Part shown: one piece after another, positions 18,308 through 64,000 of the stretch
Layout of the letters: every line of letters begins with the position of its first letter
How positions within the stretch are numbered: the stretch's first letter is position 1
Assembly (NCBI GenBank): GCA_030390025.1
Contig: CM059432.1
Location: 53,198,001 to 53,262,000 of the forward strand
DNA from: Squalus acanthias
Taxonomy: Eukaryota
Length of the DNA: 64,000 bases
Direction of reading: 5' to 3'
Made by a program: the position numbers and the translations under genes
Notes under the pieces: model-generated
What the model was told of the DNA's origin: nothing
Databases searched by the model: none
The model's input: only the letters and a program-made list of their open reading frames with translations

Positions 18308-18744
18308 AAGCATTCACCATGTATTGTGATAACAGGTAACGGATGTGCTTCAAGATCTGAAAATAAATGAGGAGATGAATTTTATACCCAATCTGCAGTT
18401 GACACCTCTACTCCTACTTCTCCATCTCCCACAGCATCTATTGCAACTCCTCCCAAGATTTCCTTGTACGGGGTGAGAGGCTAGAGACTTGGGGTTCCAT
18501 TAACTGTGGCTTCTCTCTGGCATTGGTGATCGGCGATTTTATCTTTTAAGAAGAAAGCAGAAGTGTGAAGGTCCTCTGCTTACCAGAATGTGGAATGCAA
18601 CCCAGGTGTAAGCATTCCTTAATAGGGTGGTAACACTTTCAGAAAATAAGGAGCTACATATCTGAATACCTGAAAGAAGGAACACTTGCCGGGGAAGGCA
18701 GAGAATGTGAATGGTATCATGGTACCTTGCAGACATTTCAAGTA

Positions 18745-18778
18745 GCCACCCCAGTCCAACACCGGCATCTCCGCATCA
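18745..18778 (+). mobile_element. Ultra-short Penelope-like family A 3'-tail insertion
   Basis: ccaccccagtccaacaccggcatctccgcatca is identical to the 3' ends at 23891-23923 and 63356-63388. Flanked by direct repeat (a)catttcaagta. Confidence 0.85.
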
Positions 18779-20029
18779 CATTTCAAGTAAGTAGTAATGG
18801 TGTTCAACACAGGAGGAGGAAGGCATGTGGATATGTGAAACATCTTTATCACATTGCATTGGTACAAGGTATGATCTTCTCCTGCTATCTTGGCTAGCCT
18901 GATAAGATCATTGAACTGCTTCAGGCACTGAATTGCCATGTGTAGATTGGTGGAGGTGACAGTAAGTGATCTGTAATACTTTTTTCTGTTGGACCCATTC
19001 CCTCAGTTCCCAAAGATTGTCTGCCTCTGTTCCCTTTTTTTGGGCCAGCAAAACATCTACGGAGGACTATAAATACTTGGAGCTGCTGTCCCCTGCTGTG
19101 GCACCTTCAAACATGCTTCTTCTGGTTTTGTTAGCTGTTGCTGCCAGTTTTGAGATTGCTGGTCTTTCTTTTTAAGTAGCTGCAGCAGATTAAATGCTGC
19201 AGCAGCATTGGTTCCCCCCCCAGAGACAAGCTCCCAATAGAGACTACATAATAATACTGGTTGCCCATCCTAAATATGATAATAAACCTGAGAAAGGAAA
19301 ATATAATCGGGTCAGAGCAGAGTGACACTAGAGGGTGGAATTCCCGCCCTGACACACTTTTGCATGGAACACCACCATGGAGGAAAATGTAGACGACAGA
19401 GTAGGATTGGACTTAAGTCAATGATTAATGAGACAACATGGTGTAGGGGAAGACACTGTAGTCTGCACAGTTGTTGTTAATGTAAGATCAAATTGCTGTT
19501 CTAACCATCTTCAGCTTTTGGCAAAATAGAGTTGATTTAATCAGATTTCCACTAAATGAGAAGTATTGGTACTGAAATATGGAATATTTACTGATTGTAT
19601 TATATAATTACCTAGAGATACTCACGTGGACAATTTGGAATAGTTGAATGCTGCTAATCAGTATAATACAGTATATTGCCACATTGTTCTAAGACATTTC
19701 TCAAAAACTGTTCATGAAATCATTGTTTCCCATTGTCTTAAACACTTCCATTAAACAAAATGTTTATCACTTTCTCCCCTTCTCTTGGATTAACTCTAGT
19801 CTCAAAGGATGCAGCAGGTTTGGTTGCCAGTGGCCACATCTGTAGATAATTACTTCAGAATTTACTTTTTAATGACTATTCAGAGAACAAAGTGTTCTAT
19901 GGAATTATCATCACTGAAATAATGAAGATCTGAAGAAATAAATCTGGTTAGAGATTTCTCTCCTTGAATAAATTAAATTGTATTAGTTACTATTCCTAAA
20001 ATTAACTTTGGCTTCAGATTCCAGTATAC

Positions 20030-23430: not shown

Positions 23431-23708
23431 CAACAACAACAACAACAACTTGTATTTATATAGCGCCTTTAACGTAGTAAAACGTCCCAAGGCACTTCAC
23501 TGGAGTATTATAAGACGAAAAATTTGACACCGAGCCACAGAAGGAGAAATTAGGGCAGGTGACCAAAAGCTTGGTCAAAGAGGTAGGTTTTAAGGAGCAT
23601 CTTAAAGGAGGAAAGAGAGGTAGCGAGGCGGAGAGGTTTAGGCAGGGAATTCCAGAGCTTAGGGCCTAGGCAACAGAAGGCACGGCCACCAATGGTTGAG
23701 TGATTATA

Positions 23709-23923
23709 TTGAGAGGTCGCACAACACCAGGTTATAGTCCAACAGTTTTATTTGAAATCACAAGCTTTCGGAGCTATCGATTTGCTCCTTCCTCAGGTGA
23801 GGAAGGAGCAAATCGATAGCTCCGAAAGCTTGTGATTTCAAATAAAACTGTTGGACTATAACCTGGTGTTGTGCGACCTCTCAATTTTGTCCACCCCAGT
23901 CCAACACCGGCATCTCCGCATCA
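23709..23923 (+). mobile_element. Penelope-like family A palindromic insert, copy 1
   Basis: Perfect 88-bp inverted arms (23708-23795 and 23798-23885) plus 3' tail. 12-bp TSD tgagtgattata (23697-23708 and 23924-23935). Confidence 0.9.
23758..23800 (-). ncRNA. Predicted minimal type-I hammerhead ribozyme
   Basis: UCAC-CUGAGGA-A-GGAGC(loop)GCUCC-GAAA-G-CUU^-GUGA: core boxes, 5-bp stem II, 4-bp stem I, palindromic AAGCUU stem III. Confidence 0.7.
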
Positions 23924-24193
23924 TGAGTGATTATAATCAGTGATGCTCAAGAGGGCAGAATTAGAGGAGCGCAGATATCTCAGGGGGTTGTGGGTCTGGA
24001 GGCGATTACAGAGATAGGGAGGGGCGAGGTCATGGAGGGATTTGAAAACAAGGATGAGAATTTTGAAATCGAAGCGTTGCTTAACTGGGAGCAAATGTAC
24101 GTCTGCGAGCACAGGGGTGATGGGCGAACGGGACTTAGTGCGAGTTAGGACATGGGCCGCCGAGTTTTGGATGACCTCAAGTTTATGTAGGGT

Positions 24194-62505: not shown

Positions 62506-63184
62506 ATTAATTAAAATACCCAAAAATATGATTCTGATGTGAATGTCCTTTTGAACAACATTGCCTTCTGTACAAGGAGACATGTAACTGACTTGTATCC
62601 ATTGGCTAACAGGTTTGGAGTCAATGTAAATATGAATCTCTACAATGAATAGAATGTGTTAACAACAGTCAATTATATGTGGGAAATGCCATGCTATACT
62701 TTTCCTTTTTGTCTGTGACTGTTAACAAATCAAAAGACAACATAGTTGGGTAGTCCAGATTACCTATTAAACTGACAATTGGACTGTCGAGGAGTTGGAA
62801 TTTAAAACAGCTTTATATTCTTGGAAGTTTTACCAATAGTAAGTCATCTTCAAGAAGTGAAATAAGTTGCGTGGGTTATATATGATTTGATGGACAGAGT
62901 GGACTCAATAAACTGAATGGCCTTTTTTTGTTCCATACTTTCTTTTGCCTCCATCGCTGCCTCCATGGCTTGTTACAATGGCACTTGAAAGCAAGTGACA
63001 GGTAGGCTTAATATATATATCTCAAATCAACTTGGTTGTTTATCAGGTATTAATAGATCCAATTTCCCTGCTCATCTAGTAGGGTGTAAGTGTCCAGTGT
63101 CTATAGTGAGCCAAGGATTCATTGGCTGATCTCTATGGAAGTCTAACCCATTCATCTAACTCAGTCTTGACTGGTCTAATGGTT

Positions 63185-63388
63185 AGTCGCACAACACCAG
63201 GTTATAGTCCAACAGTTTTATTTAAAATTACGAGCTTTCGGAGCTGTTGCCCCTTCGTCAGGTAACCTGACGAAGGGGCAACAGCTCTGAAAGCTCGTAA
63301 TTTTAAATAAAACTGTTGGACTATAACCTGGTGTTATGCGACTTCTCATTTTTGTCCACCCCAGTCCAACACCGGCATCTCCGCATCA
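63185..63388 (+). mobile_element. Penelope-like family A palindromic insert, copy 2
   Basis: 79-bp inverted arms (63185-63263 and 63265-63343, 2 mismatches) plus the same 3' tail. 12-bp TSD ggtctaatggtt (63173-63184 and 63389-63400). Confidence 0.9.
63228..63265 (-). ncRNA. Predicted minimal type-I hammerhead ribozyme
   Basis: UUAC-CUGACGA-A-GGGGC(AACA)GCUCC-GAAA-G-CUC^-GUAA. A near-complete mirror copy lies on the plus strand at 63263-63300. Confidence 0.72.
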
Positions 63389-64000
63389 GGTCTAATGGTT
63401 GTTCTCTGTGCATGTTTCTGTTACAATGGTTTACAGAAAGGACATAATCAAACTGGTACATAAAATCAGATGAATAATACATAATTTTTCTTTAAAGTAA
63501 AGGGACATGCTTGCACATATGTACTATGTTTTTCTATGTTTTTTTTGGCCCCAAGCCTTCTCCTACATCTGATGTATAGCTATACAGGAGGCTGAGCTGA
63601 CTTTGCGTGAGTGAGGTTGGTCCAGGCAGTGATGGCCAATTTTTATTCCTACCTGACCCATTGTATAACCACTTCTGCTATAAACAACATCATTTTATGA
63701 ATCAGGAAGTGCATGGGTGCCAGATTCACCCAGTGAATCCACTTCCATCCTAAGTAATGATCTCTGGCTTGTCCTTGCTTTAATAAGGAAAGTGGTAACA
63801 GGGTATCATGTTAACTGCACAGCCAAGGAAATAATTGAATTTTCATAGATGTGCAAACACTAATGCATCTAAACATCTCGCCTGAAATAGCTAAATTGAT
63901 TGTCCACGGAAATATCATGAATTTTCATGATTCACTTGACATGAATTTGTAAATAGTCCACTAAATAGTTCATTGTCATTGGTACATATTTATGAACACA

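Follow-up and report, generated by a model that had tools for sequence, protein, structure and literature searches.

The hairpin inserts in the window (the whole 64,000-nt stretch of DNA analysed here) are very probably short dead-end insertions of an abundant, protein-coding, autonomous Penelope-like element (PLE), formed by double priming at two sites at insertion. In each subfamily, the arms of the hairpins are the last about 90–130 nt of the pseudo-LTR of this element.

Hairpin stubs in the window and their parent element

The insert at 23709-23923 was bounded by a 12-bp direct repeat, TGAGTGATTATA, at 23697-23708 and 23924-23935. An inverted-repeat search placed its arms at 23708-23795 and 23798-23885 (88 nt each, 100% complementary, 2-nt spacer). 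The insert at 63185-63388 lay between copies of a 12-nt direct repeat, GGTCTAATGGTT, at 63173-63184 and 63389-63400, and its arms were found by the same search at 63178-63263 and 63265-63350 (86 nt, 94% complementary, 1-nt spacer). It had the same build as the first hairpin and represented a different sequence variant. The insert at 18746-18778 was the final 33 nt of the element alone, bounded by CATTTCAAGTA at 18734-18744 and 18779-18789. These terminal 33 nt were identical across all three copies and had no match in any of 100 shuffled versions of the window. The features of the three stubs, with window coordinates and strand, were as follows.

23697..23708, no strand: left target-site duplication of stub 1 (TGAGTGATTATA), from direct-repeat match
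23709..23796, minus strand: inverted arm of stub 1, element sense strand, ending ...CTCTCAA without a tail, from inverted-repeat search and self-comparison
23800 down to 23758, minus strand: complete minimal hammerhead motif of stub 1, in the arm plus 23797-23800, by eye against PLE-type features
between 23762 and 23761, minus strand: predicted hammerhead cleavage in the inverted arm of stub 1, by-eye motif reading
23797..23884, plus strand: direct arm of stub 1, core without C3 (G at 23797) and without the helix I 5′ strand
23885..23923, plus strand: tail of stub 1, 39 nt (38 nt when counted from the paired arm end), on the direct arm only, ending ...CCGGCATCTCCGCATCA
23924..23935, no strand: right target-site duplication of stub 1
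63173..63184, no strand: left target-site duplication of stub 2 (GGTCTAATGGTT)
63185..63264, minus strand: inverted arm of stub 2, other subfamily, no tail, outer end 45 nt short of the element 3′ end
63265-63343, plus strand: direct arm of stub 2, core CUGACGA present, helix I reduced
63344-63388, plus strand: unpaired 3′ part of stub 2, including the tail
63389..63400, no strand: right target-site duplication of stub 2
18734..18789, plus strand: stub 3, made of CATTTCAAGTA (18734-18744), one extra G, the element end (18746-18778) and CATTTCAAGTA (18779-18789), without an inverted arm

The initial annotation had described inserts of about 215 bp with 12-bp target-site duplications and a perfect 88-bp hairpin with a 2-nt loop, all of which were recovered by the repeat search. 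Its third copy, with an 11-bp duplication, corresponds to the 33-nt stub between the CATTTCAAGTA repeats, where the element starts at 18746 after the extra G. The positions that vary between the two hairpins were mirrored on both arms of each, as became clear on reading both and as had been noted before. In both window hairpins, the fold-back point borders a CUGANGA...GAAA motif on its 5′ side. The earlier statement that the fold-back lies at the 5′ edge of a hammerhead therefore held for both copies, but it needed correction for the 23709 copy, whose plus-strand motif is without C3 and whose complete motif is on the minus strand. In a folding computation, the RNA of the 23709 insert formed a single 86-bp hairpin (−166.4 kcal/mol, z = −25). 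No PLE ORF was present inside the window, which held the three stubs only.

The 23709 hairpin is nested in another repeat (window 23567-24000). At another genomic locus, L036 (G000:C1:5143022-5144854), the hairpin and its duplication recurred with one mismatch, and roughly 130 nt to the left and 70 nt to the right of the insert were shared with the window copy as well. These shared flanks indicate that the composite was duplicated after the insertion, as part of the other repeat.

The terminal 33 nt were counted across the 3.7-Gb genome by exact-pattern matching. They occurred in 20,165 exact copies, and the reversed control sequence in none. We examined 93 copies, namely the first 90 exact matches, which all lie within 13 Mb from the start of a single contig, together with the three window copies; the sample thus represents copies with the exact 33-nt end. 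Many of these were not hairpins but were continuous, over hundreds of upstream bases, with an ORF that contains YIDD and a GIY-YIG-like motif. At L017 and L109, the element end read GCATC/ATG, and this ATG starts an ORF of 848 aa (L109:120-2663) that matched Pfam RVT_1 with an E-value of 2.2e-9 and 37.8 bits (cut-off 29.6). The GIY-YIG match in the ORF of L013 (E 7.3e-4, 20.2 bits) was under its cut-off of 22.6, and the VVY...YIG spacing was visible by eye in the element ORF. A protein-collection search returned 28 relatives. According to precomputed domains, most of them carried PF00078 and 7 of the 28 carried PF01541. The best named relative was an uncharacterised shark protein with 90% identity, and a PDB sequence search with the ORF gave no match.

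The junction between the element end and the ORF was found 349 times in the genome, with several runs at a spacing of 3137-3142 bp. Head-to-tail arrays of the full element with this period were observed, for example at G000:C2:211213568-211223010. The untranslated part of such tandem units is the pseudo-LTR, and this organisation corresponds to that of an endonuclease-bearing PLE. These data uphold the previous assignment of the inserts to a PLE. In tandem units, the 3′ end of the pseudo-LTR adjoins the start codon of the RT ORF. The RT/GIY-YIG-type ORF that had been suggested upstream of non-palindromic copies was also present, with the RVT_1 match above and the GIY-YIG match below the respective cut-off.

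Some further features of the coding copies were noted. The Penelope ORF of L109 stops early compared with that of L013, and just 3′ of it lies a second, unrelated RT ORF of 414 aa (L109:3204-4448), which is LINE-like and contains a ...FADDTK... motif. Three shark host-gene models (P0012, P0016 and P0022, including an XRCC5 isoform and a PPP1R12A-like isoform) matched the Penelope ORF with 68-82% identity over 20-26% of the query. Fragments of the element seem to have been built into these public gene models.

One-sided tails, fold-back junctions and the hammerhead

Self-comparison revealed an inverted arm in 68 of the 93 copies. Fifty-three of these were simple hairpins and 15 had a large unpaired middle, and at least six of the remaining 25 copies (L003, L011, L015, L017, L035 and L045) had inverted parts farther upstream. 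In the 68 copies, the partner of the inverted arm stopped 26-59 nt before the element end, mostly at 32-42 nt. Direct repeats of 6 nt or more flanked 66 of the 68, measuring 12 nt in 37 copies and between 11 and 14 nt in 57. At its 3′ end, the element was ragged by a few letters (GCATCA, +T, +TG, +TGA, +TGAC...), the additional letters being those that lead on through the ATG into the ORF.

In one subfamily, the word at the arm end occurred 20,054 times in the genome and was followed by the tail start in 8,591 instances. Among the first 100 arm-end matches listed, there were 27 head-to-head arm pairs. The exact tail start was present on one member only in 26 of the 27, the remaining pair had a tail with one substitution, and no pair (0/27) had two tails. 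When unpaired arm ends were fetched, 20 out of 20 were tail-less copies stopping 0-9 nt after CTCTCA, indicating that this proximal site is a real 3′ end. There are thus two real 3′ ends about 40 nt apart, and every hairpin pairs an end of one kind with an end of the other. A continuous series linked the hairpins to direct-only, tail-less and kilobase-long copies, and the left arm was cut on its outer side in one copy only (L088).

Structurally different insertions had repeatedly hit the same target words, as seen in the flanks of loci L001-L131. TATCTCATAGAAGGCAGAGG was the target at L002, L003, L011, L112 and L092/L096; TAGAATACAAGAGCAGG at L030, L078, L115, L116, L118 and L130; ATCAAACACTCCCAGGGCAGG at L013, L020, L037, L040, L114, L122, L126 and L128; and GAGTATATTCAA at L023 and L075. 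Several of these recurrent targets lie within ORFs of LINE-like RT, which suggests preferred AT-rich landing sites inside other repeats. The word ATCAAACACTCCCAGG, found after the element end, was considered as the ORF start of another subfamily and rejected, being a repeatedly hit target in another repeat.

The distance of the fold-back point from the element end differed between the 53 simple hairpins and spanned 94-465 nt. The centres of 30 of the 53 fell immediately 5′ of CUGANGA, at 116-135 nt from that end. Since the stem II loops differ in length, we measured arm ends from C3 of the core, in copies that contain it. Direct arms ended 0-17 nt upstream of C3 in 31 of 61 cases (mode 7), the interval of 18-23 nt was empty, four arms fell at 24-37 nt and the other 26 lay at least 40 nt away; inverted arms ended 0-15 nt upstream of C3 in 32 of 54 cases. 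Direct-only copies, such as L033, L040, L054, L057 and L088, begin in the same zone. Folding back at the 5′ edge of the hammerhead is a family-wide tendency and not a rule.

The exact junction of the 23709 copy was found 86 times in the genome and that of the 63185 copy eight times. We read 18 same-junction loci; most had other flanks and other duplications, and the central letters occurred in either orientation relative to the tail. In the set of 53 simple hairpins, the 23709 copy and L036 were the only two with a common junction, and their flanks were common as well. The 86 same-junction copies are read here as recurrence in a hot zone, although some hairpins could instead have been copied. 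A single fixed junction in all copies, named at the outset as a pattern that would argue against this kind of element, was not seen; the junctions occupied dozens of positions, with a hot zone for fold-back. The proposal of a single template for each palindrome, copied during insertion, is supported by the mirrored subfamily differences and by junctions that vary between copies.

No hammerhead was reported by Rfam at the gathering threshold across the whole window. When the two hairpins were searched with E-values up to 10, Rfam again gave no hammerhead, just generic microRNA-type matches far under their thresholds. By hand, the direct-arm order was read as the helix I 5′ strand (UCAC/UUAC), CUGANGA, an extra A, GGAGC-loop-GCUCC, GAAA-GCU-Y and GUGA/GUAA. 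Over 29 distinct aligned sequences, 98.5% of the cells were paired, compared with 23-49% in controls with slid partners. One pair changed from C-G to U-A in helix I in six of the 29 sequences, and one pair changed likewise in helix II in five. The 29 sequences are related, and this covariation is modest evidence.

PLE minimal hammerheads of metazoans have been described, in the part of the report drawn on here (Cervera and de la Pena 2014, PMC4209133), as type I motifs with a 4-bp helix I, a nucleotide between A9 and 10.1 and a G10.1-C11.1 pair, the palindromic AGCU replacing helix III. The core, helices, extra nucleotide, G10.1-C11.1 and AGCU of the inserts match the published type, in line with the initial annotation. 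Judged from the hand alignment and limited covariation, a minimal hammerhead of the PLE type is present.

The predicted cleavage position follows GAAAGCUY and lies at 92 nt from the element end; one of the 53 simple hairpins was centred on it. This low number indicates that cleaved RNA is not the usual template. The 86-bp hairpin fold of the 23709 RNA would compete with the ribozyme fold. In our reading, the hammerhead is a passenger, and inside the 88-bp duplex of the stubs cleavage would not be expected. It would also follow from the predicted fold that transcripts of the stubs form long dsRNA.

Rfam microRNA-precursor models matched both hairpins (23739-23854 and 63184-63357) with E-values down to 1e-17, far under the gathering scores. 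Such stubs should be masked as Penelope fragments and not called microRNA-like hairpins, as they are a trap for hairpin-based microRNA prediction.

Formation of the palindromes

We propose that insertion would start with a staggered 12-bp double nick at the target. Reverse transcription would be primed by the top-strand end at the proximal site, around ...CTCTCA, and by the bottom-strand end at ...GCATCA, the distal site located at the ATG. From these start sites, about 40 nt apart, both cDNAs would copy the same stretch of RNA toward its 5′ end, and joining of the two cDNA 3′ ends by template jump or repair would leave a near-perfect palindrome. Equal arms at arbitrary positions would arise if both cDNAs were made on one RNA molecule and stopped at its end.

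Several properties of a lizard PLE are pertinent here. The purified protein, which is predicted to be dimeric, nicks and extends both target strands (Frangieh et al. 2024, PMC11167929). Reverse transcription starts at two adjacent internal sites, and the interval between them is the tail; hammerhead cleavage is dispensable in vitro, and the element RNA must include ORF sequence 3′ of the start sites (PMC11167929). In vitro, the use of the start sites is the same on both strands (PMC11167929), so the strict one-tail rule is not predicted by that work alone.

Both arm ends could be measured in 34 copies. They were within 3 nt of each other in 20, the inverted arm was longer in 10 and the direct arm was longer in four. 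In addition, the core was reached by the inverted arm alone in 20 more copies and by the direct arm alone in eight. These numbers bear on a simpler scheme, in which the stubs are also PLE-derived but a single bottom-strand cDNA primes itself and is copied back to a stop about 40 nt before its own 5′ end, where RNA and protein cover the tail. Self-priming was inferred for rotifer PLEs from palindromes at inverted junctions, in the part of Arkhipova et al. (2013, PMC3846280) cited here. The arm ends within 3 nt in 20 of 34 copies, at many positions, and the loops of 0-2 nt in several copies fit snap-back, which explains the equal arms of these 20 copies equally well. However, an arm copied back from the tailed cDNA cannot exceed its template, whereas the inverted arm was the longer one in 10 of the 34, with a difference of up to more than 1 kb seen in L001, and was alone in reaching the core in 20 others; a substantial fraction of the copies is thus not explained by simple snap-back. 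It also needs an extra assumption for its fixed proximal stop, while the same site is a real 3′ end in all 20 tail-less copies. We consider snap-back rather unlikely as the origin of the stubs. Two cDNAs, one per nicked strand, starting at the proximal and distal sites fit all copy classes, a reading drawn from the arm asymmetry.

The hairpins had also been interpreted as a separate non-autonomous, retrozyme-like family, transcribed as a hairpin unit and mobilised in trans by a PLE. The 86 and eight copies of the exact 23709 and 63185 junctions, most of them with different flanks and duplications at the 18 loci read, speak in favour of such a family. Nevertheless, just the 23709 copy and L036 share a junction among the 53 simple hairpins, and these two share flanks too, with the junctions in general spread over dozens of positions. 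The central two letters of the 23709 junction, found in either orientation with respect to the tail, fit many joining events in the hot zone. The proximal start site invariably forms the left end, L088 being the single copy with an outer-cut left arm, and each hairpin matches a subfamily of full-length copies. Furthermore, the stubs lack the downstream ORF sequence that the lizard element RNA needs (PMC11167929). The interpretation as a separate family was not sustained, because the arms are the autonomous element's own pseudo-LTR end and the copies form a continuous series; we regard it as very improbable. An ordinary DNA-transposon MITE with terminal inverted repeats would share the inverted arms and the short duplication, but it is hardly conceivable given an unpaired tail of 39-45 nt at one end, a centre and an arm length that vary between copies without any fixed length, and a series that reaches from the 33-nt stub to copies entering the RT ORF. 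A non-LTR retrozyme was rejected as a candidate, since it requires a head-to-tail array of hammerhead monomers and the window copies are single head-to-head pairs or the 33-nt stub.

Returning to double priming by two cDNAs, the hot zone of arm ends could reflect the RNA template. In all subfamilies read, a conserved TATATATG preceded the modal arm end by about 31-38 nt, and a similar TATA plus initiator is described for the pLTR of rotifer PLEs in the cited part of PMC3846280. The hot zone could be the 5′ end of the element mRNA and the stubs leader run-off copies. Start positions were also read at 30 loci whose element end runs into the ORF. The core motif was found in 25, and five were without a core at the expected place. 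Among the 25, three start 4-19 nt upstream of the core, two start at 29 and 44 nt, and 20 match 52-400 nt upstream; several of the apparent ends at 52 and 160 nt are indels relative to the reference copies. These positions neither support nor refute the transcription-start reading, and partial tandems would give the same pattern.

Taken jointly, these observations allow a more tentative and still doubtful reading. The 10,000-plus stubs (approximately) may record coordinated double priming by a dimeric enzyme on one RNA, with the DNA ends 40 nt apart, the tail-less cDNA leading and the tailed one trailing, and the shared inner ends, clustered 0-17 nt 5′ of the core and about 30 nt 3′ of TATATATG, may mark the mRNA 5′ end. 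If true, the lead of the tail-less cDNA would account for a tail-less arm that, in most copies, equals or exceeds the tailed one in length. Most insertions of the family would then be abortive copies of the mRNA leader, begun at the 5′ set of start sites and not at the 3′ set. Young stubs with exact junctions, which number in the thousands, offer natural data on the transposition cycle: they could reveal how the two cDNAs of a Penelope insertion are initiated and joined, and whether the arm ends mark the transcription start of the element.

Comparison with known elements

The layout of the stubs is already in print for endonuclease-bearing PLEs and is not new. An inverted 5′-truncated copy, a one-sided tail of 30-40 bp and a target-site duplication are given for PLE insertions of rotifers, flies and fish, and in the class scheme, in the parts of two sources used here (PMC3846280; Craig et al. 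2021, PMC8557442 Fig. 2). The family described here is a clean and very abundant example of this known insertion pattern, which gives it little weight in itself. As far as those parts of PMC3846280 and PMC8557442 go, Adineta vaga Pen2a and the class scheme have in common with the shark element the inverted copy on the 5′ side, the one-armed tail and the short target-site duplication, as well as a TATA motif in the pLTR upstream of the hammerhead region, tandem units and heavy 5′ truncation. In contrast to Pen2a as presented there, both arms are here down to about 90-130 nt, leaving the hairpin only, the copies number about 20,000 and the element end coincides with the start codon. The target-site duplication is a regular 12 bp here, compared with 8-10 bp in the rotifer examples quoted from PMC3846280.

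The hammerhead shares with metazoan PLE minimal hammerheads, as characterised in the cited part of PMC4209133, the type I arrangement, the 4-bp helix I, the extra nucleotide between A9 and 10.1, the G10.1-C11.1 pair and AGCU. It differs from them in that the motif of the stubs sits within a long perfect duplex and that the plus strand of the 23709 copy is without C3.

Animal non-LTR retrozymes have a hammerhead, a PLE pLTR origin and the absence of an ORF in common with the stubs, according to the portion of a preprint consulted here (Li et al. 2026, 10.64898/2026.07.22.740005). In that portion they are head-to-tail tandem monomers thought to act via circular RNA, whereas the stubs are single head-to-head pairs with a target-site duplication.

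The Poseidon-type element PAc of Anolis carolinensis (PMC11167929) has the same order of hammerhead, about 90 nt and RT start sites. The two start sites with an interval equal to the tail, the AC-rich start region and the use of both strands as primers are also common to PAc and the shark element. Cleavage is not needed in PAc, which fits the finding that one of 53 arms starts at the predicted cleavage site here. The PAc start sites are 111-118 nt inside the ORF (PMC11167929), whereas the distal site of the shark element coincides with the ATG. Both the strict one-tail rule and the bias toward a longer tail-less arm come from the genomic copies analysed here, not from PMC11167929.
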